Source: Cetorhinus maximus
Lineage: Eukaryota
NCBI RefSeq assembly: GCF_964194155.1
Contig: NC_135901.1
Span: forward strand, 4,278,001 to 4,342,000
Length of the DNA stretch: 64,000 nt
Reading direction: 5' to 3'
The position numbers and the translations under genes were made by a program. The stretch's first letter is position 1; each line of letters begins with the position of its first letter. A model generated the notes under the pieces. The model worked only from the letters and a program-made list of their open reading frames with translations, ran no database searches and was not told where the DNA came from. Below, in pieces: positions 3,001-58,164 of this stretch.

Positions 3001-4115
3001 TCATGAACTCGCTAGCGTCTCAGCAGGGTGGATCACCAAGTGAATCCGTTCCCACACTCGGAGCAGGTGAACAGCCTCTCCCCATGTGAACTCGCTGGTG
3101 ATTCAGCAGGTGGGATGACCGGGCGAATTTCTTCCCACACTCGGAACAGGTGAACGGCCTCTCCCCAGTATGAACTCGCTGGTGATTCAGCAGGGTGGTT
3201 GACTGAGCAAATCCCTTCCCACACTCAGAGCAGGTGAACGGTCTCTGTCCAGTGTGAATCCGCCGGTGTACAGTGAGTTGAGATGAGTGCTTGAACCCAG
3301 TCCCACAGGAGGAGCACTTGAACGGTCTCTCACCAGTGTGAATTCGCTGGTGTGCGGTTAGTTCAGACGATCGAATGAACCCAGTCCCGCAGTGAGAGCA
3401 CTTGAATGGTCTCTCATCAGTGTGAACACGTTGATGGGACATCAGTTCCCCGGAGCTTTTATAGCACTTCTCACAGTCTGGACATTTAAAAGGTCTCTCC
3501 CCGGTATGAACTCTCATGTCTCAGCACATGGGACAATTGAGTGAATCTCTTCCCACACACATAGCAGGTGAATGGCCTCTCACCAGTGTGAATTCGCTGG
3601 TGTACAGTGAGTTGAAACGATCCCCTGAACCCAGTCCCACAGTGAGAGCACCTGAACGGTCTCTCATCAGTGTGAACACGTTGATGGTACATCAGGTCCC
3701 CAGAACTTCTATAGCATTTCCCACAGTCTGGACATTTGAAAGCTCTCTCCCCAGTGTGAACCCGCTGGTATGTCAGCAGGTTGGATGACTGAATGAATCC
3801 CTTCCCACACTCAGAGCAGGTGAATGGCCTCTCCCCAGTGTGAATTCGCTGGTGTGTTAACAGGTCGGATAGCCGAGTGAATCCCTTTCCACATTCGAAG
3901 CAGGTGAACGGCCTCTCCCCAGTGTGAATGCGTCGATGAGCTTCCAGCTCAGACGGGTAACTGAACCTCTCCTCACATTCCCCACATTTCCACAGTTTCT
4001 CCCCACTGTAAACGGTGCTTTTTCCTTCCATGTTCAAAATCTGATGACATTCAGGTGACGATAAATTGAGCGACTCCATCAGATCCCGATGTGATATTTG
4101 CTTTGAGTTTCCCAA
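3001..4115 (-). pseudogene. C2H2 zinc-finger pseudogene (ZNF-B), about 12 fingers
   Basis: ORFs 3486-4115 and 3020-3517 carry CxxC...HxxxH fingers with TGERPF linkers. Frameshifts at about 3515 and 3087, and a TAG in the last finger. Paralogue of 39712-40833. Confidence 0.85.
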
Positions 4116-23194: not shown

Positions 23195-24358
23195 TCAGAA
23201 TGAACATGGTTCAGTCCTGGTATGATTAACAGCATCAACAGGAGTAGAATCCAAACCTTGCAATCGCCTGTGAACCCACTGGTGTGTTCGCAGGTGTGAT
23301 GACTGAGTGAATGCCTTTCCGCAGGCATTACAGGTGAACGGCCTCTCCCCACTGTGAACTCGCTGGTGTTTCAGCAGATAGGATGAATGAGAAAATCTCT
23401 TCCCACACACAGAGCAGGTAAATGGCCTCTCCCCACTGTGAATGCTCTGGTGTGTCAGCAGGTTGGATAACTGAGTGAATCCCTTCCCACACACAGAGCA
23501 GGTGAACGGCCTCTCTCCAGTGTGTACTCGCTGGTGATTCAATAGGTTGGATGACCGAGTGAATCCCTTCCCACACACGGAGCAAGTAAACGGTCTCTCC
23601 TCAGTGTGAACCTGTTGATGTGTCAGAAGGTTAGATGAACGGGTGAATCCCTTCCTACAGTCAGAGCAGGTGAATGGTCTATCCCCTGTGTGAAGTTGCT
23701 GGTGTATCAGAAGGTTGGATGAATTAATGAATCCCTTCCCACAGTCAGAGCAGGTGAACGGCCTCTCCCCAGTGTGAATTCGCTGGTGATTCAGTAGGGC
23801 AGTCGGACGGGTGAATCCTTTCCCACAGTTGGTACCGGTGAATGGCCTCTCTCCAGTGTGAGTATATTGATGTGTTAGCAGTTCCTTTTTGCTTTTAAAG
23901 CTCTTGTCACAGTCAGAACAATTAAAAAATTTGTTATCAGAGTGAACAAGTTGATGTGTCAGAAGGTGGGATGACTGAATGAATCCCTTCCCACACACGG
24001 AGCAGGTGAACGGCCTCTCCCCAGTGTGAATACGTTGATGTATCAGCAGATCTTTTCTGCATTTAAAACTCTTCTCACAGTTAGAACATGTAAACGGTCT
24101 CTTATCAGTGTGAACAAGTTGGTGTGTCACAATGTGGGATGACCGAGTGAAGTCCTTCCCACACACAGGGCAGGTGAATGGCCTCTCCTCAGTGTGAACT
24201 CGCTGGTGTGTCCGAAGGTTGTACAAATGGGTGAATCCCTTCCCACAGATAGAGCAGGTGAACGGTCTCTCCCCAGTATGACTGCGCCGATGAACTTCCA
24301 GTTGGGATGGGAAACTGAATCCCTTCCCACAGTCCATACATTTCCATGGTTTCTCCAT
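23195..24358 (-). CDS. C2H2 zinc-finger protein (ZNF-D), 13 fingers (finger 7 has C to G)
   Basis: 387-aa ORF from MEKPWKC with tandem fingers and TGERPF linkers; AATAAA downstream near 23145; acceptor near 24722. Confidence 0.9.
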   Translation of the reverse strand: MEKPWKCMDCGKGFSFPSQLEVHRRSHTGERPFTCSICGKGFTHLYNLRTHQRVHTEERPFTCPVCGKDFTRSSHIVTHQLVHTDKRPFTCSNCEKSFKCRKDLLIHQRIHTGERPFTCSVCGKGFIQSSHLLTHQLVHSDNKFFNCSDCDKSFKSKKELLTHQYTHTGERPFTGTNCGKGFTRPTALLNHQRIHTGERPFTCSDCGKGFINSSNLLIHQQLHTGDRPFTCSDCRKGFTRSSNLLTHQQVHTEERPFTCSVCGKGFTRSSNLLNHQRVHTGERPFTCSVCGKGFTQLSNLLTHQSIHSGERPFTCSVCGKRFSHSSYLLKHQRVHSGERPFTCNACGKAFTQSSHLRTHQWVHRRLQGLDSTPVDAVNHTRTEPCSF

Positions 24359-24999
24359 GGTGTGGGGGTCCTTGTCTCTCTCCAGGTTGGACGCTTAGTT
24401 GAAGCCTTGTCCACACACAACACGTGAACAGTTTCTCCCCACTGTGAATGGTGCGATATTTTTGCAGACTGTGTAACTGCTTAAAGTTTTTTCCAAAGTC
24501 AATTCACTGGAACACTCTCACTCGGGTGTGTGTGTGTTGAGGCTTTTCCAGTCACACCGATGTTTGAAATCCTTTCCCAAAGACAGAATAGACAAAAATT
24601 TCTCCTTCCACATTCAAAAGTTGATGATACTCAGGTCCTGATGAATTCAGTGCCTCTGACAGATCTTGATGTGATGTTTGCTTTGCGTTTTCTGTCTGCC
24701 AGTCACCTCCGTTTAATACCCTGTAAAACGAGTTTACAAAAGTCATCACTTTAAATCCAGGACTGAAATTCAGAACAGAGTTTCTATGGAACATTTATTC
24801 CTCTCTTGTTCCCCCAAAGCTGTAAATCCCTGTCCCACACACTCTCCCTCCTCCCTGGGCTGAAATCCAAACCCATCTCACCATCTCCACCATTTCTTTC
24901 CTCCACTCCCAGTTTTCTCCCTCCCTCTCCTCTGCCTGGGTTCAGTTCTCCAGCTCCTGTGTCTCTGATTCAGGGTCTCAGGCGGGACCCCAGCTGCCT

Positions 25000-26299: not shown

Positions 26300-26316
26300 G
26301 ACATTCTCCTGAACCT
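26300..26316 (+). repeat. Left target-site duplication of the Tx1 array
   Basis: GACATTCTCCTGAACCT is identical to 37715-37731 (19 bp if one mismatch is allowed) and abuts the poly(A) tail. Confidence 0.92.
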
Positions 26317-26552
26317 TTTTTTATTTTTTTGCAAAAATATACTTTATTCATAAAATATCTTCAATCACATTCCAAACCATTTCAAAAACACCATTTCGAG
26401 GGTACAATCAGGTTCAACTTTTACAAAATGTATCACCAGGTGCATCAGTATAAACAATATTACAGTCATTTACAGCCTTTCATTTTGAGCTGTACAGCCC
26501 GAGGGGCTTTTAAACAGTTCCCAGTCCCTCGGTGCACTGTGGCAGAAAGGTC

Positions 26553-29500
26553 TTAGATAGCGACCCTTCCCCATTGCGCCTTTGCGGCAGCTGCCCCAAG
26601 CTTCAGTGCGTCCCTCAGCACGTAATCCTGGACTTGGATTGTGCCAGTCCGCAACACTCGGTCGGGGACAACTCTTTGTGCTGGAAGACCAACAAGTTTC
26701 GGGCAGACCAAAGCGCGTCTTTCACCGAGTTGATGATCCTCCAGCTGCAGTTGATGTTTGTCTCGGTGTGTGTCCCTGGGAACAGCCCGTAGAGCACAGA
26801 GTCCTGTGTCACAGAACTGCTCGGGATGAACCTCGACAGCAACCACTGCATCTCTCTCCAGACCTTCTTTGCAAAGACACAATCCACAAGGAGGTGAACA
26901 ACGGTCTCTTCCCCACCACAGCCACCTCAAGGGCAACGTGCAGAGGGGGTGAGACTCCTGGCGTGTAGGAAGGATCTAACGGGAAGGGCCTTTCTCACCA
27001 CCAGCCAAGCCACGTCTTGGTGCTTGTTGGAAAGTTCTAGCGATGAGGCATTCTGCCAAATGACTTTGAGTATGCTCGGGGAACCATCCCACAGGATCCA
27101 CCCTCTCCTTTTCCCTCAGGACCTCTAAGACTTTACGTGCTGACCACTGCCTGATGGACTTGTGGTCAAAGGTGTTTTTCTGCATAAATTTTTCCACGAG
27201 GGACAGGTGGTACGGCACGGTCCAACTACTTGGAGCATTCCGCGGCAGCGTGGCCAGACCCATCCTTCGCAACACCGGGGACAGGTAGAACCTCAGCACG
27301 TAGTGACACTTGGTGTTTGCGTACTGAGGGTCTACGCACCGCTTGATGCAGCCACACACAAAGGTGGCCATCAGTATGAGGGCGATGTTGGGCACGTTTT
27401 TTCCCCCTTTATCTAGAGGCTTGTACATCGCGTCCCTGCGGACACGATCCATTTTCGACCTCCAGATAAAGCGGAAGATGGCTCGAGTGATCGCCATCGC
27501 GCAGGAGTGTGGAATGGGCCAGACCTGCGCCACGTACAGCAACAGCGAGAGTGCCTCACACCTGATGACCAGGTTCTTACCCGCAATGGAGAGGGAGCAT
27601 CGCTCCCACATGCCCAGTTTCCTTTTCACCATAGCCACTCGCTCCTTCCAGTTTCTAACGTATGCCCTGGTCCCTCCGAACCATATCCCCAGCACCTTCA
27701 GGCCATCAGCCCTGACAGTGAAGGGGACAAAGGATCGGTCAGCCCAGTTCCCAAAGAACATGGCCTCGCTCTTCCCACGATTTACCTTGGCTCCCGAGGC
27801 CAGTTCGAACTGGTCGCAGATGTGGATCAGTCTGCGCACCGACAGCGGATCCGAGCAGAAGACGGCGACATCGTCCACGTACAGGGAGGCTTTTACCTGA
27901 GTGCCTCCACTGCCTGGGATCGTCACTCCTCTTATGCCCGGATCCTTCCTGATGGACTCGGCAAAGGGTTCTATGCAACACATGAAAAAAACAGGCAAGA
28001 GAGGACAGCCCTGCCTGACTCCAGATTTAATCGGAAAGCTATCTGTTTCCCACCCATTGATTGAGACTGCGCTACTGATGTTAGTGTAGAGCAGTTGGAT
28101 CCAATTTCGAATTCCCTCCCCAAACCCCATTTTGGAGAGCACATCCACCATGTAGGTGTGCGATATTCTGTCAAAGGCCTTCTCCTGATCCAAGCTGATG
28201 AGGCAGGTATCCACACCCCTGTCCTGTACATAGACAATCGTATCCCTGAGCAGCGCGAGGCTGTCAGAGATCTTCCTGCCTGGCACAGTGCAGGTCTGGT
28301 CAGGGTGAATCACCAATTCCAGAACGGATTTGACCCGATTGGCGATGACCTTGGACAGAATCTTATAGTCCACATTCAACAGTGCAATGGGTCGCCAATT
28401 TCTAATTTCCTCCCTTCCCCCCTTGTGCTTGTAGATGAGGGTGATGATGCCTTTCCTCATTGATTCTGACATGCTGCCAGCCAGTAGCATACTCTCGTAC
28501 ACTTCTAGCAGGTCTGGGCCGATCAAGTCCCACAGCGCCGAATACAACTCCGCCGGCAAGCCATCGCTTCCGGGAGTTTTACTCTTCTCGAAGGACTCAA
28601 GGGCCTTAGTCAGTTCATCAGGAGTTAGCGATTTGTCCAGGCTCTCCCGCGTACTGTCGTCTAAGACCTCCGTGATAGAGGACAGGAAGGACTGGGAGGC
28701 CGTGCTGTCCGTGGGCTTCACGTCATACAATCCGGCATAAAAGGATTTGCTGATCCTCAAAATGTCAGACTGTGATGACTTTACTGAGCCGTCTTCTTCC
28801 TTCAGGCTGCTGATCACAGAGCTCTCTCTGTGTACCTTTTGGAAGAAGAAACGTGAGCACGTCTCATAATGCTCCACGGAGCGGACTCTGGAACGGAAGA
28901 TGATCTTGGAGGCCTCCGAGGCAAAGTGCGAGGCTTGCTGGCTCTTCACCTCTTGGAGTTCCTCCTTGACATCGACGCCCATCGACTGCAGTCGGAGCAG
29001 ATTCTGAATGTTTTTCTGGAGTCGAGACATTTCCCTCTGTTCCTTTCTAGCTTTCTGGGTGCCTTTGAGGATGAAAAACCTCTTGATGTTTCCCTTGATC
29101 GCTTCCCACCAGTGTGTCAGGGACTCAAAGAGGGGTTTCACGGTTCTCCAACCTTTGTAATCCCTCTTGAGCTCCTCAATGTTCTCTGGGGTCAGCAGTT
29201 GCACATTTAGCTTCCATGCCCCCCTGCCCACCCTCAGGTCCTTCACTAAGTGGCAGTCCGCCAGTAGGAGGCAGTGGTCAGAGAAAAACACCGGCTTGAC
29301 GTCGGTGGATCTGACTGTGAATGCACGGGACACAAATAGGAAGTCTATCCTGGAACGAATGGACCCGTCTGGCTGCGACCAGGTGTATCTACGCTGCGCT
29401 CCGTCTGCAGGGTTGCTGAAGACGTCGTGCAACTTGGCATCCTTAACTGTTTCCATCAGGGATCTGGACGTAGCGTCCAATCTGCTGTCGGCCCTGCTGG

Positions 29501-29957
29501 ATCGTCCAGCCGTATCGATGATGCAGTTGAAGTCACCGTCCAGAATGACCAGCCTGGAGGTTGCCAGCAGCAGTGGGAGCTGCTGAAAAACCTCCAGCCG
29601 CTCGGCCCCTTGTGACGGGCCATACACGTTAATTAACCGGAGTGGAGCATTCTTGTATATTACGTCTGCTACGAGGAGGCGCCCGCCCACCACCTCCTTA
29701 ACCTCAGAGACGGTGAAGTTGCCTCCCCGCAGCAGAATACCCATGCCGGAGCAACGAGAGTTGTTTCCGCCCGACCAGATCGATGGCCCATGGGACCACC
29801 ATCGTGACCATTGCCTGTAGGAGCTGAGGTGTGGTATCGCACACTCCTGCAGAAACAAAATGTCAGCTTTGACCTTGGCAAGGTAGTCCAAGGTCGCAAC
29901 ACGTCGCGTAGTCGATTTAATGCTACGCACATTTATGGATACAATCTTTAAACCCAT
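26553..29957 (-). pseudogene. Tx1 ORF2 (APE endonuclease, RT, C-terminal CCHC); open for about 960 codons, C-terminus disrupted
   Basis: SINVR, LQE, GDFN, SRID, FSDH, PGSDG, NWRPI, DQEKAFD, GVRQGCPL, YVDD motifs. A 2-nt deletion near 27070, a TGA near 26928 and a 1-nt deletion near 26635. Confidence 0.9.
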
Positions 29958-29967
29958 TTTAAAGCAT

Positions 29968-31506
29968 TTATTCTCTTACCAAACCTGTTGTCTCTGAGAG
30001 TCCCAGAGCTTTAGTCTGCTCCTTCATACCCGTAGTGAACTCAAATTGCTTCACTTTGGATGGGCTGAGGAAATTTTCCTGAACCTCCCCATTGGCGGTG
30101 TTCTGCTCGGGTGGCATCTGGGGGACTGAGCAGAGAGTGGGGTTTGAAATGACCTTTGTTGGAGAAGCTTCTCCAATCCTCTCACCCTCTGGGACGTTCC
30201 TGCTCCCGGCTTCCCGGAGCTGGGGTGCGCTGAGCGTCTCACTGCTCCCAGATTCCTGGGGCTGTGGTGCGCTGGCCTCTTCGGGTTGTAGGCAAAGTTG
30301 GGGTGCGCTGGTCTCCTCATTGTCTCCAATGTTCTGAAGCTCGGGTGCCTCGTCCTCCAACTCCCGAGAGCTTTGCCACTTCTTCTGTCGGTGCCGCCTT
30401 GGCCCTTCTTCATCCGAAGAGCTGCTGCCCTTGTCATCCATTTCAAATGGGAGATGCCTCTTGCCACTTGTCTGGGAAATGGCTTGGTTTCTTCTTAGCC
30501 CCTTCTTCCTTTTGGCTCTCTTCACCGTCTGCCACTCCCCCTGCTGCTTTGCCACTGCTGCCTCCTCCCCCTCCATTGATTCGCTGTCCTGAGGACTGGG
30601 AGGTTCAGGGGGCAGTGCTGTTGATTGGCTGTCAGTTGCCTCAATCTTTTCCTCCACCTTATCTCTCTCTGTGTCCTCCTTTGTCCCATTGTTCTTCCTG
30701 GGGGCCTTGGTGGTTGGAGTGACACGAAGCATTTCTTCTGCTTCCCTCTCATTGGCTTTGGCTGCCTGTACATAAGTACGGCAGCGTTTGGGGCAGGTCC
30801 TGTAGAGGTGACCTGCCTCGACACACAGGTTGCAGCACTTAGCCTGTTTGCAGTCTTTTGTCTGGTGCCCTTCCTGTTTGCAGTTCTTGCAGAGGACGGC
30901 ACTGCAGTTGGCTGCCACATGACCAGACTTGCCGCATGAGCGACAAAGTTTGGGTTGCCCAGCGTAGACGAGGTAACCACAGCTTCCCCCGATAGCGAAT
31001 CTGGAAGGAGGGTTGAAGGTGGCTCCCTTACCGTCGGTTTTGAGCGTGACCTTAATCTGGCGTTTGCATATCCAGATCCCCAAATCGTCTCTAACCGCGG
31101 TGCAGCTCCCCACCTTATCGAAGTACCTGGTGAGGAAGGTGAGCACGTCGGCGACAGGGACGAAGGGGTCATAAAGATGCACATTCACCACCCTGTCCCG
31201 TTGCGACAGCAGAGCAAAGAGCGGCTCCGCTGTCAGGATCTTCATCTCCGGCAGGTCTCTCTTCTTGAACACCTTCAGGAGCTTGACGCAGTCTGCCACT
31301 CGCTTGAACGTCACATCAAAATATCCAGCGCTGGGGAAGTCCTGCAGGCAGTAGATTTCCGCAGCTTCGAAACCACACACCTTTAACAGGATCCTCCTGG
31401 CGAAGACTGCCCGATCCACAGGTGCTCCTCCTTCTTCGCTGCCCTTCACCATGACTTGGATGGTGTTAGGTACCCCATGGTATGGGGCTTGATTGGTTAT
31501 AGCCAT
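29968..31506 (-). CDS. Tx1 ORF1 (ZCCHC3-like N-terminal domain, three CCHC zinc knuckles, disordered C-terminus)
   Basis: 512-aa open frame with CRSCGKSGHVAANC, CKNCKQEGHQTKDC and CNLCVEAGHLYRTC; ends 10 nt before the ORF2 ATG. Confidence 0.9.
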   Translation of the reverse strand: MAITNQAPYHGVPNTIQVMVKGSEEGGAPVDRAVFARRILLKVCGFEAAEIYCLQDFPSAGYFDVTFKRVADCVKLLKVFKKRDLPEMKILTAEPLFALLSQRDRVVNVHLYDPFVPVADVLTFLTRYFDKVGSCTAVRDDLGIWICKRQIKVTLKTDGKGATFNPPSRFAIGGSCGYLVYAGQPKLCRSCGKSGHVAANCSAVLCKNCKQEGHQTKDCKQAKCCNLCVEAGHLYRTCPKRCRTYVQAAKANEREAEEMLRVTPTTKAPRKNNGTKEDTERDKVEEKIEATDSQSTALPPEPPSPQDSESMEGEEAAVAKQQGEWQTVKRAKRKKGLRRNQAISQTSGKRHLPFEMDDKGSSSSDEEGPRRHRQKKWQSSRELEDEAPELQNIGDNEETSAPQLCLQPEEASAPQPQESGSSETLSAPQLREAGSRNVPEGERIGEASPTKVISNPTLCSVPQMPPEQNTANGEVQENFLSPSKVKQFEFTTGMKEQTKALGLSETTGLVRE

Positions 31507-31515
31507 TGCTTGACG

Positions 31516-31568
31516 ACCTTTCCCTGGCAGAAACCGTGATCAGGGTCTCTCCCCTGCCAGGTAAGTAT
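31516..31568 (-). ncRNA. U1 snRNA-derived 5' head of unit C (fragment, not a U1 gene)
   Basis: ATACTTACCTGGCAGGGGAGAGACCCTGATCACG matches 32 of the first 34 nt of human U1 as recalled; weaker similarity continues (GTTTCTGCCAGGGAAAGG). Confidence 0.9.
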
Positions 31569-31569
31569 C

Positions 31570-32489
31570 TTTATAGTCTTTGTCTTTTTTTTTGCAAAAA
31601 TATACTTTATTCATAAAATATCTTCAACCACATTCCAAACCATTTCAAAAACACCATTACCAGGGTACAATCAGGTTCAACTTTTACGAAATGTATCACC
31701 AGGTGCATCAGTACAAACAATGTTTCAATCATTTACAGCCTTTCATTTTGAGCTGTACAGCTCGAGGGGGTTTTAAACAGTTCCCAGCCCCTCGGTGCAC
31801 TGTGGCAGAAAGGTCTTAGACAGTGACCCTTCCCCATTGTGCCTTTGCGGCAGCTGCCCCAAGCTTTAGTGCGTCCCTCAGCACGTAGTCCTGGATTTTG
31901 GATTGTGCCAGTCCGCAACACTCGGTCGGGGACAACTCTTTGTGCTGGAAGACCAACAAGTTTCGGGCAGACCAAAGCACGTCTTTCACCGAGTTGATGA
32001 TCCTCCAGCTGCAGTTGATGTTTGTCTCGGTGTGCGTCCCTGGGAACAGCCTGTAGAGCACAGAGTCCTGTGTCACAGAACTGCTCGGGGTGAACCTCGA
32101 CAGAAACCACTGCATCTCTCTCCAGACCTTCTTTGCAAAGGCACAATCCACCAAGAGGTGAACAACAGTCTCCTCCCCACTACAGCCACCTCGAGGGCAA
32201 CGTGCAGAGGGGGTGAGACTCCTGGCGTGTAGGAAGGATCTGACGGGGAGGGCCTTTTTCACCACTAGCCAAGATACGTCTTGGTGCTTGTTGGAAAGTT
32301 CTAGCGATGAGGCATTCTGCCAAATGACTTTGACAGTCTGCTCGGGGAACCATCTCCTGACGTGTAGGAAGGATCTGACGGGGAGGGCCTTTCTCACCAC
32401 CAGCCAAGCCACGTCTTGGTGCTTGTTGGAAATTTCTGGCGATGATGCATTCTGCCAAATGACTTTGACAGTCTGCTCGGGGAACCATC
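31570..32489 (-). mobile_element. 5'-truncated Tx1 unit B with an internal 135-bp tandem duplication
   Basis: ORF2 C-terminus plus 3' UTR and A tail. 32220-32354 and 32355-32489 both encode the 45-aa WFPEQTVK...RSFLH segment. Confidence 0.9.
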
Positions 32490-32726
32490 TTTGTCTTTTT
32501 TTTTGCAAAAATATACTTTATTCATAAAATATCTTCAATCACATTCCAAACCATTTCAAAAACACCATTACAAGGGTACAATCCAGGTTAAACTTTTACA
32601 AAATGTATCACCAGGTGCATCAGTACAAACAATATTACAATCATTTCCAGCCTTTCATTTTGAGCTGTACAGCCCGAGGGGCTCTAAACAGTTCCCAGTC
32701 TCTCGGTGCGCTGTGGCAGAAAGGTC

Positions 32727-35700
32727 TTAGACAGCGACCCTTCCCCATTGCGCCTTTGCGGCAGCTGCCCCAAGCTTTAGTGCGTCCCTCAGCACATAGT
32801 CCTGGACTTTGGTTTGTGCCAGTCCGCAACAATCGGTCGGGGACAACTCTTTGTGCTGGAAGACCAACAAGTTTCGGGCAGACCAAAGCGCGTCTTTCAC
32901 CGAGTTGATGATCCTCCAGCTGCAGTTGATGTTTGTCTCGGTGTGTGTCCCTGGGAACAGCCCGTAGAGCACAGAGTCCTGTGTCACAGAACTGCTCGGG
33001 ATGAACCTCGACAGCAACCACTGCATCTCTCTCCAGACTTTCTTTGCAAAGGCACAATCCACAAGGAGGTGAACAACGGTCTCTTCCCCACCACAGCCAC
33101 CTCGAGGGCAATGTGCAGAGGGGGTGAGACTCCTGGCGTGTAGGAAGGATCTGACGGGGAGGGCCTTTCTCACCACCAGCCAAGTGGTGCTTGGTGCTTG
33201 TTGGAAAGTTCTGGCGATGAAGCATTCTGCCAAATGACTTTGACAGTCTGCTCGGGGAACCATCCCACAGGGTCCACCCTCTCCTTTTCCCTCAGGGCCT
33301 CTAAGACTTTACGTGCTGACCACTGCCTGATGGACTTGTGGTCAAAGGTGTTTTTCTGCATAAATTTTTCCACGAGGGACAGGTGGTACAGCACGGTCCA
33401 ACTACTTGGAGCATTCCGCGGCAGCGTGGCCAGACCCATCCTTCGCAACACCGGGGACAGGTAGAACCTCAGCACGTAGTGACACTTGGTGTTTGCGTAC
33501 TGAGGGTCTACGCACCGCTTGATGCAGCCACACACAAAGGTGGCCATCAGTATGAGGGCGATGTTGGGCACGTTTTTTCCCCCTTTATCTAGAGGCTTGT
33601 ACATCGCGTCCCTGCGGACACGATCCATTTTCGACCTCCAGATAAAGCGGAAGATGGCTCGAGTGATCGCCATCGCGCAGGAGTGTGGAATGGGCCAGAC
33701 CTGCGCCACGTACAGCAACAGCGAGAGTGCCTCACACCTGATGACCAGGTTCTTACCCGCAATGGAGAAGGAGCATCGCTCCCACATGCCCAGTTTCCTT
33801 TTCACCATAGCCACTCGCTCCTTCCAGTTTCTAACGTATGCCCTGGTCCCTCCGAACCATATCCCCAGCACCTTCAGGCCATCAGCCCTGACAGTGAAGG
33901 GGACAAAGGATCGGTCAGCCCAGTTCCCAAAGAACATGGCCTCGCTCTTCCCACGATTTACCTTGGCTCCCGAGGCCAGTTCGAACTGGTCGCAGATGTG
34001 GATCAGTCTGCGCACCGACAGCGGATCCGAGCAGAAGACGGCGACATCGTCCACGTACAGGGAGGCTTTTACCTGAGTGCCTCCACTGCCTGGGATCGTC
34101 ACTCCTCTTATGCCCGGATCCTTCCTGATGGACTCGGCAAAGGGTTCTATGCAACACATGAAAAAAACAGGCAAGAGAGGACAGCCCTGCCTGACTCCAG
34201 ATTTAATCGGAAAGCTATCTGTTTCCCACCCATTGATTGAGACTGCGCTACTGATGTTAGTGTAGAGCAGTTGGATCCAATTTCGAATTCCCTCCCCAAA
34301 CCCCATTTTGGAGAGCACATCCACCATGTAGGTGTGCGATATTCTGTCAAAGGCCTTCTCCTGATCCAAGCTGATGAGGCAGGTATCCACACCCCTGTCC
34401 TGTACATAGACAATCGTATCCCTGAGCAGCGCGAGGCTGTCAGAGATCTTCCTGCCTGGCACAGTGCAGGTCTGGTCAGGGTGAATCACCAATTCCAGAA
34501 CGGATTTGACCCGATTGGCGATGACCTTGGACAGAATCTTATAGTCCACATTCAACAGTGCAATGGGTCGCCAATTTCTAATTTCCTCCCTTCCCCCCTT
34601 GTGCTTGTAGATGAGGGTGATGATGCCTTTCCTCATTGATTCTGACATGCTGCCAGCCAGTAGCATACTCTCGTACACTTCTAGCAGGTCTGGGCCGATC
34701 AAGTCCCACAGCGCCGAATACAACTCCGCCGGCAAGCCATCGCTTCCGGGAGTTTTACTCTTCTCGAAGGACTCAAGGGCCTTAGTCAGTTCATCAGGAG
34801 TTAGCGATTTGTCCAGGCTCTCCCGCGTACTGTCGTCTAAGACCTCCGTGATAGAGGACAGGAAGGACTGGGAGGCCGTGCTGTCCGTGGGCTTCACGTC
34901 ATACAATCCGGCATAAAAGGATTTGCTGATCCTCAAAATGTCAGACTGTGATGACTTTACTGAGCCGTCTTCTTCCTTCAGGCTGCTGATCACAGAGCTC
35001 TCTCTGTGTACCTTTTGGAAGAAGAAACGTGAGCACGTCTCATAATGCTCCACGGAGCGGACTCTGGAACGGAAGATGATCTTGGAGGCCTCCGAGGCAA
35101 AGTGCGAGGCTTGCTGGCTCTTCACCTCTTGGAGTTCCTCCTTGACATCGACGCCCATCGACTGCAGTCGGAGCAGATTCTGAATGTTTTTCTGGAGTCG
35201 AGACATTTCCCTCTGTTCCTTTCTAGCTTTCTGGGTGCCTTTGAGGATGAAAAACCTCTTGATGTTTCCCTTGATCGCTTCCCACCAGTGTGTCAGGGAC
35301 TCAAAGAGGGGTTTCACGGTTCTCCAACCTTTGTAATCCCTCTTGAGCTCCTCAATGTTCTCTGGGGTCAGCAGTTGCACATTTAGCTTCCATGCCCCCC
35401 TGCCCACCCTCAGGTCCTTCACTAAGTGGCAGTCCGCCAGTAGGAGGCAGTGGTCAGAGAAAAACACCGGCTTGACGTCGGTGGATCTGACTGTGAATGC
35501 ACGGGACACAAATAGGAAGTCTATCCTGGAACGAATGGACCCGTCTGGCTGCGACCAGGTGTATCTACGCTGCGCTCCGTCTGCAGGGTTGCTGAAGATG
35601 TCGTGCAACTTGGCATCCTTAACTGTTTCCATCAGGGATCTGGACGTAGCGTCCAATCTGCTGTCGGCCCTGCTGGATCGTCCAGCCGCATCGATGATGC

Positions 35701-36133
35701 AGTTGAAGTCACCGTCCAGAATGACCAGCCTGGAGGTTGCCAGCAGCAGTGGGAGCTGCTGAAAAACCTCCAGCCGCTCGGCCCCTTGTGACGGGCCATA
35801 CACGTTAATTAACCGGAGTGGAGCATTCTTGTATATTACGTCTGCTACGAGGAGGCGCCCGCCCACCACCTCCTTAACCTCAGAGACGGTGAAGTTGCCT
35901 CCCCGCAGCAGAATACCCAGGCCGGAGGGACGAGAGTCGTTTCCGCCCGACCAGATCGATGGCCCATGGGACCACCATCGTGACCATTGCCCGTAGGAGC
36001 TGAGGTGCGGTATCGCACATTGCTGCAGAAACAACAGGTCAGCTTTGACCTTGGCAAGGTAGTCCAAGGTCGCAACACATCGCGTAGTAGATTTGATGCT
36101 ACGCACATTTATGGATACAATCTTTAAACCCAT
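32727..36133 (-). pseudogene. Tx1 ORF2 of unit A, frameshifted near 33185
   Basis: 987-aa ORF 33170-36133 plus a C-terminal frame 32727-33263; near-identical to unit C ORF2. Confidence 0.9.
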
Positions 36134-36143
36134 TTTAAAGCAT

Positions 36144-37650
36144 TTATTCTCCTACCAAACCCGTTGTCTCTGAGAGTCCCAGACCTTTAGTCTGCTCCTT
36201 CATACCCGCAGTGAGCTCAAATTGCTTCACTTTGGATGGGCTGAGGTAGTTCTCCTTGGCGGTGTTCTGCTCAGGTGCAATCAGGGGGTTCGCGTTGAGA
36301 GCAGGTTTTGAGATGACCTTTGGTGGAGAAGCTTCTCCAAAACTCACCCCCTCTGGGGCATTGCTGTTCCCGGCTTCCCGGAGCTGGGGTGCGATGATTG
36401 CCTCACTGCTCCCAGGTTCCTGGGGCTGTGGTGTACTGGCCTCCTCAGGTTGCAGGCAAAGTTGGGGTGCTCTGGTCTCCTTGTTGTCTCCAATGTTCTG
36501 GATCTCGGGTGTCTCGTCCTCCAACGCCCTGGAGCTTTGCCGCTTCTTCTGTCGGTGCCGCCCTGGCACTTCTTCATCCGAAGAGCTGCTGCCTTTGTCA
36601 TCCATGTCGGATGGGAGACGCCTCTTGCCACTTGTCTGGGAAGTGGCTTTGCTTCTTCTTCGCTCCTTCTTCCTTTTGGCTCTCCTCACCGTCTGCCACT
36701 CCCCCTGCTGCTTTTCCACTGCTGCTTCCTCCTCCATTGATTCGCTGTCCTGAGGAGTGGGAGGTTCAGGGAGTGGTGCTGTTGTTTGGCTATCTGTTGC
36801 CTCAATCTCTTCCTCCACCTTGTCTCTCTCTGTGTCCTCCTTTGTCCCGTTGAGCTCCCTGGGGGCCTTGGTGGTTGGAGTGACATGAAGCATTTCTTCT
36901 GCTTCCCCCTCGTTGGCTTTGGCTGCCTGTGCATAAGTACGGCCTGTAGAGGTGACCTGCCTCGCCACACAGGTTGCAGCACTCAGCCTGTTTGCAGTCT
37001 TTTCTCTGGTGCCCTTCCTGTTTCCAGATCTTGCAGAGGGAGGCGCTGCAGTTGGCCGCCACATGACCAGCCTTGCCGCATGAGCGACAATGCTTGGGTT
37101 GCCCAGCGTAGACCAGGTAGCCACAGTTTCCCCCGATAGCGAATCTGGAAGGAGGGTGGAAAATGGCTCCCTTACCGTCGGTCTTTAGCGTGACCTTAAA
37201 CTGGCGTTTGCCTGTCCAGATCCCCAAGTCGTCTCGAATCTCGGTGCCGCTCCCCACCTTATCGAAGTACCTGGTGAGGAAGGTGACCACGTCAGCGACA
37301 GGGACGAAGGGGTTGTACAGATGCACCATCACCACACAGTCCCGTTGCAACTGCAGAGCAAAGAGCGGCTCCGCCGTCAGGATCTTCATCTCCGGCAGGT
37401 CTCTCTTCTCCTCGAACACCCTCAGGAGCTGGACGCAGTCTGCCACCCGCTTGAACGTCATGTCGAAAAAACCAGCGCTGGGGAAGTCCTGCAGGGTGAA
37501 GATCTCCGGAGCTTCAAAACTGCACGCCTTCAACAGGATCCTCCTGGCGAAGAAGGCCCGATCCATAGGTGATCCTCCTTCGCTGTCCTTCACCGTGACT
37601 CAGACGGTGTTAGATAACCCATGGTATGGGTTTTGATTGGTTATAGCCTT
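36144..37650 (-). pseudogene. Tx1 ORF1 of unit A, disrupted
   Basis: Start ATG changed to AAG (37648-37650), an early TGA near 37600, and a deletion/frameshift near 36943. Split over ORFs 36802-37593 and 36144-37124. Confidence 0.88.
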
Positions 37651-37659
37651 TGCTTCCCG

Positions 37660-37711
37660 ACCTTGCCTTGGCAGAACCATGCTCATGGTCTCTCCCCTGC
37701 CAGGTAAGTAT
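37660..37711 (-). ncRNA. U1 snRNA-derived 5' head of unit A (fragment)
   Basis: ATACTTACCTGGCAGGGGAGAGACCATGA matches 28 of the first 29 nt of human U1 as recalled. Confidence 0.9.
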
Positions 37712-37714
37712 CAG

Positions 37715-37731
37715 GACATTCTCCTGAACCT
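37715..37731 (+). repeat. Right target-site duplication of the Tx1 array
   Basis: Identical to 26300-26316. Confidence 0.92.
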
Positions 37732-37738
37732 GTCCTAA

Positions 37739-38171
37739 ATTCTTTCGAGTTATCAACAGTCACAGATTGCAACTCTTTCGAGTACAATCACAGTTCTTGG
37801 TTTCCGGGAGTGGGACATGAACCCACAACCCTCTGATTCAAAGGCGAGGGTGCTATGGACTGAGCCACAGCTGACACCTCCTCAATTCTTTCGAGTTATC
37901 AACAGTCACAGATTGCAACTCTTTCAAGCACAATCACAGTTCTTGGTTTCCGGGAGTGGGACATGAACCCACAACCCTCTGATTCAAAGGCGAGGGTGCT
38001 ATGAACTGAGCCACAGCTGACACCTCAAAAATTCTTTCGAGTTATCAACAGTCACAGATTGCAACTCTTTCGAGTACAATCACAGTTCTTGGTTTCCGGG
38101 AGTGGGACATGAACCCACAACCCTCTGATTCAAAGGCGAGGGTGTTATGGACTGAGCCACAGCTGACACCC
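37739..38171 (-). mobile_element. Three head-to-tail copies of a 140-bp tRNA-headed mini-SINE within one 12-bp TSD
   Basis: Units at about 37739-37879, 37884-38025 and 38030-38170. AACCTGTCCTAA at 37727-37738 and 38172-38183. A-box-like TGGCTCAGT and B-box-like GGTTCATGTCC. Confidence 0.9.
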
Positions 38172-38845: not shown

Positions 38846-39711
38846 GTCATCCCTGTCAGCAGGAGGAGAGAATGTTGTGCATTTCTATCCTGGACTGACG
38901 GGGATGGGTTTTGGAAACTCCTTTTATAGGGAATTGGAAGGGGAGGATTTACACACAGCCATTCAAAGCAAAGATCACATTAAGATCTGACTCAAGTCAC
39001 TCGATTCATCAGGACCTGGATATTATCGGTCTTTGAGTTTAAGCATTGAGTTCCAGGTCATTAACACTCAATGTGTGAAATTTCTTCCTCACATTCCCCC
39101 TGTAGATCTTACCCTAAATCTTAAATCTGTGTCTGTGATACTTTTATGATTAGCTAATACCTTATGTATTTTTCATTCACAGGATGTGGGCTTTGCTGGA
39201 TGGGCCAGCATTTATTGCCCATCCCTAGTTTCCTTTGAGAAGGTGGTGGTGAGCTGGCCCTTCTTGGTGGTGGAGGTTCAGGGTTTTGAGTTTCTGTCAA
39301 AATTCTGGTTGAGTTGTAATCCCTCTTTTTCAACCGTTCCCTCTCCCACCCCGACCCTTCTCTCTCTTCCTGTCTTCTCCCATCTAGGCCTGTGCCTTGT
39401 GTAGGCCCAGACTGGGTGGCAGATTCCCTTCCCTGAAGGACATGTGAACCAGTTGGGTTTTTATGACAATCCAGCAGTTTTCATGGTCACTTTTCCCTGG
39501 TGCCGGCCCCACAAATTACCAGATTCATTCAGCTCAATTTCACAACCTGTTTTTGTGGGTTCTCTCTCACTCCCTTTTCTCTGTTTTAAATCAATTTCAC
39601 AGGGTATTAGAAGGGGAGGATTTGCAGTTGGGAAACTGAAACCAAACATCACATCAGGATCTGACAGAGTTGCCCAGTTTATCATCACCCAGATATCATC
39701 GGAAGTTGAAC

Positions 39712-40833
39712 ATGGAAGGAAAAAGCACCGTTCACAGTGGGGAGAAACCGTACACGTGTTCTGTGTGTGGACGAGGCTTCAACCGATCATCTAATCTGTT
39801 GAAACATAAATGCAGTCACAACAGGGAGAAACTGTGGAAATGTGGGGACTGTGGGAAGGGATTTAATTACCCATCAGAGCTGGAAAATCATCAACGAATT
39901 CACACTGGGGAGAGGCCATTCACCTGCCCTGAGTGTAGGAAGAGATTTACTTGTTCGTCCAGCCTGCTGAAACATCGGCGAGTTCACACTGGGGAGAGGC
40001 CGTTCACCTGCTCCGAGTGTGGGAAGGGATTTGCTCGGTCATCCACCCTGCTGACACACCAGCGAGTTCACACTGACGAGAGACCTTTCAAATGCCCAGA
40101 CTGCGGGAAGTGCTTTAAAAGTCCCCGGGAACTGACTGCCCATCAACGTGTTCACACTGATGAGAGGCCATTCAGGTGCTCGCACTGTGGGACTGGGTTC
40201 AAGACATTATTTCACCTCACTGTTCACCAGCGAATTCACACTGGGGAGAGCCCATTCACCTGCTCCAAGTGTGGGAAGGGATTTGCTAACGCATCCACCC
40301 TGCTGAATCACCAGAGTGTTCACACTGACGAGAGACCTTTCAAATGTCCAGACTGTGGGAAGTGCTTTAAAAGTTCCGGGGACCTGATGATCCATCAACG
40401 TGTTCACACCGATGAGAGACCGTTCAGGTGCTCTCACTGCGGGACTGGGTTCAGACAATCATCTCAACTCATTGTACACCAGCGAATTCACAATGGGGAG
40501 AGACCATTCACCTGCTCAGAGTGTGGGATGGGATTCACTCGCTTATCCATCCTGTTGACACACCAGCGCACGCACACTGGGGAGAGGCCATTCACCTGCT
40601 CTGAGTGTGGGAGGGGATTCACAACCACATCCTCCCTGCTGAGACACCGGCGAGTTCACACTGGGGAGAGGCCATTCAGCTGCCCCGAGTGTGGGAGGGG
40701 ATTCACAACCACATCCTCCCTGCTGAGACACCGGCAAGTTCACACTGGGGAGAGGCCATTCACTTGCCCCGAGTGTGGGAGGGGATTCATAACCTCATCC
40801 AAACTGCTGAAACATCAGCGAGTTCACAAGTGA
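39712..40833 (+). CDS. C2H2 zinc-finger protein (ZNF-E), 13 fingers
   Basis: ATG (MEGK) at 39712 within ORF 39670-40833; acceptor tttcacag|ggtattag near 39602; AATAAA at about 40900. Confidence 0.9.
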
Positions 40834-43348: not shown

Positions 43349-44107
43349 ATGGAGAAACCATGCAAATGTGGGGAATGTGGGAAGGGATTCCGGTCCCCAT
43401 CTGCACTGGAATCTCATCGCCGCATTCACACTGGGGAGAGGCCGTTCACCTGCTCTGATTGTGGAAAGGGATTCACTCAGTTATCCCACCTGCAGATACA
43501 CCAGCGACTTCACACCGGGGAGAGGCCGTTCACCTGCTCTGATTGTGGGAAGGGATTCACTAACTCTTCCAATCTGCGGACACACCAGCGAGTTCACACG
43601 GGGGAGAGACCGTTCACCTGCTCCATATGTGGGAAAGGTTTCAGTGATTCATCCAGCTTGCTGATACACCAGCGAGTTCATACTGGGGACAAATCATTCA
43701 ACTGCTCTGTATGTGGGAAGCAATTCAGTCGATTATGCAACCTTCTGCGACACCAGCGAGCTCACACTGGGGAGAGGCCGTTCACCTGCTCTGAGTGTGG
43801 GAAGGGATTTGCTGATCCATCCATCTTGCAGAAGCACCGGCGAGTTCACACTGGGGAGAGGCCATTCAGCTGCTCCATGTGTGGGAAGGGTTTCACTCAG
43901 TTAACCAACATGCTGACACACCAGCGAGTTCACACTGGGGAGCGGCCTTTCATCTGCTGTGAGTGTGGGAAGGGATTCAGTGATTCATCCACCCTACTGC
44001 GACACCAGGGTGTTCACACTGGGGAGAGGCCGTTCACCTGCTCCATGTGTGGGAAACGATTCACTCGGTCATCTCACCTGCTGAGACACCAGCGAGTTCA
44101 CCAGTAA
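43349..44107 (+). CDS. C2H2 zinc-finger protein (ZNF-F), 9 fingers
   Basis: Intact 252-aa ORF from MEKPCKC. The usual acceptor and promoter are not visible upstream. Confidence 0.8.
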
Positions 44108-53029: not shown

Positions 53030-53872
53030 TTACTTGTGAACTCTCCGGTGTCTCAGCAGACTGGATAACTGACTGAAACCCTTCCCACACATAGAGCAGG
53101 TGAATGGCCTCTCACCAGTGTGAATTCGCTGGTGTCTCAGCAGGGTGGACGAATCTCTGAATCCCTTCCCACATTCAGAGCAGATGGACGGTCTCTCCCT
53201 GGTATGAACTCGCTGTTGCATCACCAGGTTGCATGACTGAATGAATCCTTTCCCGCATCCAGAGCAGGTGAATGGCCTCTTCCCATTGTGAACATGTTGG
53301 TGTGTCTGCAGGTGGGATAATTGAGTGAATCCTTTCCCACACTCGGAGCAGATGAAAGGCCTCTCCTCGGTGTGAACTCGCTGGTGCGTCAGCAGGTTGG
53401 ATGACTGAGGGAATCCCTTCCCACATGTAGAGCAGATGAAGGGCTTCTCCCCGGTGTGAACCCGCTGGTGTGTCAGGAGGGCAGATGAATCGCTGAATCT
53501 CTTCCCACACTCAGAGCAGGTGAATGGCCTCTCCCTGGTGTGAACTCGCTGGTGCATCAGCAGGTTGGATGACTGAGTAAATCCCTTCCCACACTCAGAG
53601 CAGATAAATGGCCTCTCCCCAGTGTGAACTCGCTTGTGTGTCAGCAGGTGAGATGAATTACTGAATCCCTTCCCACATTCAGAGCAGATGAATGGCCTCT
53701 CCCCGGAGTGAACTCGCTGGTGTTTCAGCAGGGTGGATGACTGAGTGAATGCTTTCCCACACTCAAAGCAGGTGAAAGGCCTCTCCCCAGTGTGAATGCG
53801 TTGATGAGTTTCCAGCGCAGATGGGGTGCAGAATCCCTTCCCACAGTCACCACATTTGTACGGTTTCTCCAT
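53030..53872 (-). CDS. C2H2 zinc-finger protein (ZNF-G), 10 fingers (finger 8 has H to Q)
   Basis: Intact 280-aa ORF; acceptor near 54242; candidate upstream donor gtgagt near 55220. Confidence 0.9.
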
Positions 53873-57489: not shown

Positions 57490-58164
57490 ATGGAGAAACC
57501 ATGGAAATGTAGGGATTGTGGGAAGGGATTCCGATGCCCGTCTGCACTGGAAATTCATCAACGCAGTCACACTGGGGAGAGGCCATTCACCTGCTCTGAG
57601 TGTGGGAAGGCATTCAGTGGTTCATGGCAGCTGCACGCACACCAGCGAGTTCATGCAGTGGAGAGGCCATTCACCTGCTCTCAGTGTGGCAAGGGATTCA
57701 GTGATTCATCAACCCTGCTGAGACACCAGCGAGTTCACACTGGAGAGAGGCCGTTCACCTGCTCTGAGTGTGGGAAGGGATTAACCCAGTTATCCAACCT
57801 GCTAACACACCAGGAAATTCACACCGGGGAGAGGCCATTCACCTGCTCTCATTGTGGGAAAGGATTCACTCGGTTATTCAACTTGCAGACACATCAGCGA
57901 GTCCACACCGGGGAGAGGCCGTTCACCTGCTCTGTGTGTGGGAAGGGTTTCACCCAGTCATCCAACCTGCTGCTACACCAGCAACTTCACACTGGGGAGA
58001 GGTCATTCCCCTGCTCTCAGTGTGGGAAGGGATTCACTCGATTATCCAGCTTACAGAGGCACCAGCGAGTTCACACCGGGGAGAGGCCATTCATGTGCTC
58101 TGTGTGTGGGAAGGGATTCACTCAGTCATCCCACCTGCAGACACACCAGCGTGTTCACAAGTGA
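57490..58164 (+). CDS. C2H2 zinc-finger protein (ZNF-H), 8 fingers
   Basis: ATG (MEKPWKC) at 57490 in ORF 57454-58164; acceptor ttttacag|gacattag near 57129. Confidence 0.9.

Follow-up and report, generated by a model that had tools for sequence, protein, structure and literature searches.

A Keno-like LINE of Cetorhinus maximus whose U1-derived 5′ head is probably a borrowed gene front and not a U1 mimic

Among mobile elements that target snRNA genes, the available text of PMC4640811 lists only Keno and Utopia (U2) and Dada (U1 and U6). Keno belongs to the Tx1 clade and is U2-specific (Kojima and Fujiwara 2004, cited in PMC4640811, PMC6136364 and PMC4494074). In these accounts it is an APE-type LINE that forms tandem stacks and whose 3′ end adjoins U2 nt 39 (TCTGTTCTTATC), features shared by the family examined here, which by target site, and as judged from the published descriptions, can be called Keno-like. 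Unlike Keno, this family also inserts in U1 genes at nt 37-41, its U1-headed types are mostly dispersed, short of the U2 specificity described for Keno, and it has a U1 or a U2+U1 head with an apparent ORF1 start at a U1-derived ATG. Heads derived from U1 or U2 are also known from crocodilian Tx1-Mar families (the U1-headed Tx1-2_Crp, Tx1-2B_Crp and Tx1-4_AMi) and from SINEU, including cases of U2 added onto U1 (Kojima 2015, PMC4494074); the U1/U2 junction of SINEU-2, at nt 53-58, lies near the head end that we find. In contrast to our family, the crocodilian heads were ascribed to template switching, with Mariner as target, and the available text of PMC4494074 describes neither insertion into U1 genes nor a start codon derived from U1; SINEU is moreover short and non-coding, whereas the element here is 5.2 kb long with two ORFs. 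How transcription of elements with a U1 or U2 head comes about was left open in that text, because snRNA genes have no internal promoter. As described there, R2 in 28S rDNA is comparable as a promoter-less LINE that is transcribed from its target gene and whose integration is aided by co-transcribed target sequence (PMC4494074), but R2 relies on Pol I, ribozyme processing, a restriction-like endonuclease and strict specificity, in place of the Pol II snRNA promoters, APE and loose specificity that the present family would use. Dada-U1 likewise resides within U1 genes (PMC3706591, PMC8869645, as available to us), but it is a DDE DNA transposon that makes a 6-bp duplication at another U1 sequence and has no RNA intermediate. 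Our searches of the literature, outside Repbase and subscription journals, turned up neither a LINE that enters U1 genes nor a start codon taken from U1.

In this study, we analysed a window of 64,000 nucleotides from the 4-Gb genome of C. maximus, in which a sequence-only reading had noticed U1-like letters at 37660..37711. This stretch belongs to a LINE of 5.2 kb with two ORFs that lies on the minus strand, and forms its 5′ end. The U1-like letters are indeed present in two units of an array, with minus-strand starts at 37711 in unit A and at 31568 in unit C. A full unit A, a truncated unit B and a full unit C follow one another head to tail within a single 17-bp target duplication (Table 1). 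Profile searches place an APE endonuclease (PF03372) and a reverse transcriptase (PF00078) in ORF2, both above cut-off, and PF23057, PF23058 and a zinc knuckle (PF00098) in ORF1. A separate ORF1 with RNA-binding domains and zinc knuckle, a poly(A) end and a target duplication are what we take to be Tx1 anatomy; judged by domains and anatomy the family is a Tx1-type LINE, and the tree that we made holds this genome's copies only. In unit A, ORF1 meets a stop at codon 29 and, further on, a frameshift, and ORF2 (36133-33170, minus strand) ends prematurely at 987 aa, against 1135; the ORF2 of unit C (29957-26976, minus strand) likewise ends early, at 993 aa.

Table 1. Features of the LINE array and of its U1-derived heads, in window positions
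Feature	Positions	Strand	Basis
Unit A, full-length Tx1-type LINE, type I	32495..37711	-	ORF analysis and domain search
Unit B, 5′-truncated copy with 135-bp internal duplication, poly(A) and 16-nt spacer	31569..32494	-	
Unit C, full-length Tx1-type LINE, type II	26317..31568	-	ORF analysis
Unit C ORF1, starting at the downstream ATG (512 aa); RNA-binding domains of ZCCHC3 type plus zinc knuckle	29968..31506	-	
Target-site duplication (17 bp), upstream copy, enclosing units A, B and C	37715..37731	-	
Target-site duplication (17 bp), downstream copy	26300..26316	-	
Three extra bases between target duplication and unit A head, the last a G; possible cap copy	37712..37714	-	
Unit A head: host U1 nt 1-53 minus 6 nt (U1 nt 35-40) at the stem-loop I loop	37665..37711	-	alignment to host U1 genes
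Unit C head, type II: both U1 ATGs gone, one base added, outer helix intact	31521..31568	-	
Outer helix 5′ arm, U1 nt 8-15, unaltered U1 sequence	37697..37704	-	
Outer helix 3′ arm, U1 nt 44-51 with C46G; in unit A also G50A, breaking one pair	37667..37674	-	
First U1-derived ATG, head nt 26, in ORF1 frame; likely start codon of type I	37684..37686	-	
Second U1-derived ATG, head nt 32, same ORF1 frame	37678..37680	-	
Downstream ORF1 ATG position of ancestral and type II copies; AAG in unit A	37648..37650	-	

At their ends, units A and B carry 7-16 nt of genomic sequence from a repeat unrelated to snRNA; the spacers after them (31569-31588; 32488-32494) have the sequence of a zinc-finger-cluster repeat. 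Within that repeat, an independent truncated copy of the element has the spacer sequence as its target duplication (loci L361 and L362). The same repeat also flanks L163, L290, L291 and L305 and is thus an insertion hot spot. A near-identical copy of the whole array is present on an unplaced contig (C1729:28633-35087), and two independent copies (L120, L128) share almost the same position in another repeat. In the window, the array sits between two divergent C2H2 zinc-finger arrays of a cluster that occupies both strands (3003-3928, 23195-24394, 39640-40833, 43425-44101, 53035-53796 and 57567-58159). Next to it, at 37733-38170 and nearly the same nick, stand three tandem copies of a 146-bp SINE, presumably with a tRNA-like head. 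As this SINE shares the nick of the array and also breaks U1 genes, at nt ~44-56 (L233, L234, L238), it is likely mobilised by this LINE.

Aligned with the U1 genes of the host, the head proved longer in its U1 homology than had been seen before, reaching to about U1 nt 53, and both arms of the hairpin proposed earlier are therefore inherited from U1. U1 nt 35-40 are absent or replaced in 42 of the 43 distinct heads; in type I heads the loop of stem-loop I is shortened from 10 nt to 4, with A35-G38 gone. One copy (L173) retains the full loop and matches U1 through nt 53. On this alignment evidence, the head corresponds to the front of a host U1 gene, and U1 genes are entered by the family again and again. 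Full-length U1 retrocopies that have no U1 promoter are also found in the genome (L014, L015 and others), some with an extra G in front.

The first 21 nt had been described as invariant, and nt 1-21 are the same in units A, C and host U1 genes. Since the host U1 genes are themselves invariant across these positions, the block needs no selection on the structure of an element RNA. Young subfamilies differ at 0-1 of 21 positions here and at 2-7 of 66 in comparison, too few changes to call a difference in rate, and most copies had been selected on nt 1-18. Within the head, nt 26-46 drift while the block of nt 1-~24 stays constant.

Insertion into U1 genes is recurrent. A genome search found the element 3′ end followed by U1 nt ~37-50 at 167 places, and directly before U2 nt 39, the Keno site, at 907, with none in either control. 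Of 100 U1-site matches listed, 60 lie on contigs C29 and C30, apparently as segmental copies that go back to a few events. On inspection, 19 of 30 U1-site junctions continue as U1, 10 pass into another element fragment and 1 into other sequence, and in 37 of 40 distinct junctions the U1 sequence sets in at nt 37-41. At 36 U1-promoter loci, some of which, on unplaced contigs, may be duplicates, 30 were read, with 18 intact and 12 interrupted at nt 33-56. Target duplications in U1 genes end near nt 50-59, and the head ends near nt 53. We considered whether junctions of the element with U1 nt 39-164 are short 3′ transductions, which long native U1 flanks rule out there. Specificity is nevertheless loose: a single one of 83 element 3′ ends on contig C1 lies at a U1 site, most U1-headed copies are dispersed, unit A included, and 30 ends at dispersed targets gave no consensus beyond a G or T following the poly(A). 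A dependence of the target on the head, with U1 heads going to U1 genes, could not be shown, as the U2-headed offshoot also hits U1 genes, supplying 13 of 26 classified U1-site insertions (16 of 42 being unclassified), and its 16 of 17 classified U2-site insertions come from a biased sample. Two further features of these loci deserve mention. Three U1-gene insertions (L283, L302, L303) have duplications of ~400-600 bp that rebuilt U1 3′ parts and flanks in tandem; and later elements insert into the heads of earlier copies (L307, L311, L294), which makes the U1-derived head itself a target.

At three of the 12 interrupted U1-promoter loci (L107, L306, L307), the element head stands at +1 behind a U1 promoter, and the remaining U1 follows the last poly(A); a fourth case (L304) has its head at +1 of a U1 gene whose promoter is shortened by another repeat. 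The latter also disposes of a 5′-transduced U1 promoter piece at L163, as it shows that flank to be a U1 gene with its promoter cut by another repeat. The gene's own U1 nt 35-53 are missing on the 5′ side of the heads at +1, so the junction formed inside shared sequence. Variant bases place it upstream of ~nt 25 in L304 and, less surely, in L107, where the crossover is uncertain because a U1 retrocopy (L092) combines both variant halves. The earlier suggestion that the homology may help the 5′ end join at a U1 target is upheld by these insertions in U1 genes and these heads at U1 +1, and we infer that the invariant block serves as joining homology or is refreshed from U1.

A different role had been proposed for the head, namely that it folds into a mini-U1 hairpin which leaves the U1 5′ arm free, with other pairing sequences in each unit. 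For unit C, the outer helix (nt 8-15 with an arm from nt 38-39) is predicted with P 0.70-0.87 at four lengths. The hairpin drawn for unit A is not borne out by the predictions: its minimum-energy fold is the native U1 register, with the outer helix at P 0.02-0.18, and a 6-bp inner helix would close a 2-nt loop, in place of which the folds give 4-5 bp around a 4-nt loop. As the helix of unit C begins at nt 8, only nt 1-7 are left outside it, so of the supposedly free arm these seven stand and nt 8-11 do not. The predictions leave nt 1-7 of units A and C mostly unpaired (0.57-0.89) and give nt 8-11 an unpaired probability of 0.01-0.03 in unit C, 0.11-0.12 in unit A and 0.85 in full host U1. The folding energies of 60-nt heads (z -1.80 and -1.26) are not clearly beyond those of shuffles.

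Pairing was also said to survive sequence change. Across 43 distinct heads, none of the 8 outer-helix pairs shows a two-sided change, and 21% of the inner-helix cells are broken; in the positive control, stem-loop I of host U1, 2 of 11 pairs show such a change among 11 sequences. RNAalifold did not recover the helix either, in a test weakened by the gapped loop. Units A and C represent one of each start-codon type, so the differences earlier read as covariation are largely a start-codon hand-over.

Outside the G50A of unit A, the 3′ arm departs from host U1 by one change, C46G. Of 105 single substitutions, this is the sole one that switches the ancestral head to the outer helix (0.001 to 0.99). 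The helix, at P = 0.00 in ancestral heads, is predicted for types IB and II, with P 0.87-0.99 in L111 and L109, and type II heads keep the 3′ arm, which no longer codes there, and their nt 26-36 are heavily changed. In this post hoc test, the C46G flip, fixed in derived heads, favours a weak form of the hairpin idea, in which the outer helix would have come under selection in types IB and II for masking U1 nt 8-11 from splice donors or for protecting the 5′ end. Such selection would be compatible with the explanation that we prefer below, but we regard it as rather unlikely, given that two-sided change is absent, that in the ORF1 frame C46G is at the same time a silent Leu substitution, that the large type IA subfamily weakened the helix through G50A, and that the ancestral, long-UTR and U2-headed lineages do without it. 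In itself, the hairpin matters little.

Far less credible is that the head acts as a mini-U1 which binds U1-70K and U1C and so brings the RNP to the splice donors of nascent transcripts. Beyond the identity of nt 1-21 to U1 and the mostly unpaired nt 1-7, it can draw on donor matches of at least 8 at 7 of 51 insertion sites, against 5.9% of flank windows. The mean best match, however, is 5.88 at the 51 sites and 5.77 in 1020 flank windows (p 0.48), so the expected bias towards donors is absent from the mean. According to the available text of PMC4383343, the U1-70K structure uses U1 A35, A36, G37 and G38, residues that are lost with the deletion of U1 nt 35-40. The head matches the Rfam U1 model with 13.3 bits, against a cut-off of 69.5, and the youngest, ORF-intact, U2-headed offshoot is without U1 nt 1-11 entirely, yet still enters U1 genes as counted above. 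With no compensatory change, U1 nt 8-11 hidden and the U1-70K loop absent, U1 mimicry is unsupported.

What the head does appear to provide is a start codon. We scored 103 5′ ends, 80 of them short U1 heads. Of these, 58 have the U1 ATG only, 6 have both, 13 the downstream ATG only and 3 private frameshifts; in none of the 80 is an ATG missing at both places. These are counts of related copies, behind which lie a few lineage events. Shared head deletions in the lineages with a U1 ATG are multiples of three; type II alone has recurrent lengths that break the frame. Among the scored 5′ ends are 9 U2+U1 heads, all with the in-frame U1 ATG as their sole start, and the ORF1 of promoter-backed intact U2-headed copies begins at the U1-derived ATG. 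Seven long-UTR copies break the rule, most of them carrying U1 ATGs out of frame and far upstream. As reading frames, then, the lineages keep either the U1-derived AUG or the older downstream one, and the former is likely the start codon at which translation of ORF1 would begin.

To place these types, we built a tree of 71 rows from the genome's own copies, including 18 of 32 type IA and 14 of 30 type IB copies. Its midpoint root does not order the older U2-only against the ancestral U1 types, and four rows (L132, L133, L159, L206) are long branches and unreliable. With starred support, the tree nests the U2+U1 offshoot, which lost U1 nt 1-11 and kept the U1 ATG, within type IA. Two other groups stand apart by their heads. 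An older subfamily (L121, L125, L132, L143, L154, L166, L172) has U1 nt 1-37 only, and the same seven copies have a T-rich 5′ UTR of ~170 nt added before ORF1. In L287, L297, L298, L300 and L246 the head consists of U2 alone (nt 1-34/37), fused to the sequence immediately ahead of the downstream ATG; these copies group with the ancestral U1-headed types in the tree.

The offshoot also points to where active copies may reside. Fifteen U2-headed copies lie at +1 behind 300 bp that match the U2 promoter, and 14 of them are intact (ORF1 520 aa, ORF2 1135 aa), the remaining one being truncated where its contig stops. Among 80 U1-pattern stretches not one has two intact ORFs, which makes the U1-headed types look older; nor did a genome search find an intact U1-headed copy behind an intact U1 promoter, and U1 sources are accordingly deduced from relics and from the U2 offshoot. 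Traces of such sources are seen in dispersed copies. In all six that were examined, poly(A) is followed by U2 nt 38-54/58 and then by another truncated fragment, no U2 gene occurs in 9.5 kb, and three of the six lie inside a clear duplication; L364 begins with G and U2 +1. A matching U1 piece was found at 4 dispersed loci, of which one lies in a 9-bp duplication and one in a low-complexity one, and two gave no duplication. Read-through, or a template jump, from a stack embedded in snRNA explains these pieces behind the poly(A). In addition, 30 of 61 full-length heads have an extra G in front, where the background is 21% (p 1e-6), as expected from capped RNA, some of these G's lying in the target duplication. 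Contigs from three presumed RNA runs and one further run attest presence only. Transcripts from U1 promoters tend to bypass poly(A) signals and, when long, undergo export as mRNA (available text of PMC2241894); weak use of the signals fits read-through, yet implies a low mRNA yield. Taken together, the sources likely sit in snRNA genes.

Alternatively, the head could have arisen by template switching onto U1 snRNA, as in Kojima's model for SINEU, with internal or chance host promoters driving transcription and U1 insertions as a side hot spot. Such an origin accommodates the dispersal of most copies, the failure to find an intact U1-promoter source and the non-snRNA repeat from which the array spacer derives, and repeated 5′ additions are known in crocodilian SINEU-2 (available text of PMC4494074). 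It is harder to reconcile with a head end that coincides with the end of the U1 target duplication (nt ~53), with the start at snRNA +1 of all variants alike, very different though their heads are in length (U1 plus 25 nt to the ATG, U2 heads and the ~205-nt UTR), with the U1 or U2 target pieces behind the poly(A) of dispersed copies, and with the intact copies behind U2 promoters. We therefore hold it to be unlikely.

We consider it probable instead that this Keno-like Tx1 LINE uses its U1 head as a borrowed transcription start, as homology for 5′ joining and as the start codon of ORF1, and not as a U1 mimic. Its insertions fall at nt 37-41 of U1 genes and ahead of nt 39 of U2 genes, and some full-length heads replace the first ~53 nt of the gene at +1 behind the U1 promoter. 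The cDNA end would anneal to gene nt 1-~24, the block being refreshed from U1 or having to match it; this would keep the block invariant while nt 26-46 drift. Copies in snRNA genes would then act as sources, the snRNA promoter making a capped RNA from +1 that sometimes continues beyond the poly(A) of the element, so that dispersed progeny would start at U1 +1, often with an added G and some with a U1 piece. The AUG of U1 stem-loop I became, to judge from the frames, the ORF1 start that would be used in translation, and the tree shows that a type I copy later acquired a U2 head, with loss of U1 nt 1-11 and retention of the U1 AUG; the intact copies belong to this offshoot. Against this explanation, most copies are dispersed, and the ends of units A and B in a non-snRNA repeat may indicate a dispersed source. 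Going a step further, the lineage could be hopping between snRNA genes as promoter donors (U2 to U1 to U2), landing ~38 nt past their start sites and seating its sources at +1 by means of the captured front, with the AUG of U1 stem-loop I permanently recruited; we judge this wider scenario to stand about evenly between true and false.

If true, the ORF1 protein of the present intact copies begins with residues encoded by U1, and a non-coding RNA sequence turned into a protein N-terminus, with a clean hand-over of the start codon, would make a neat case of exaptation. It would also answer how snRNA-headed LINEs and SINEU get transcribed, a question that the 14 intact copies behind U2 promoters, the relics at U1 +1 and the tagged dispersed progeny make directly testable.
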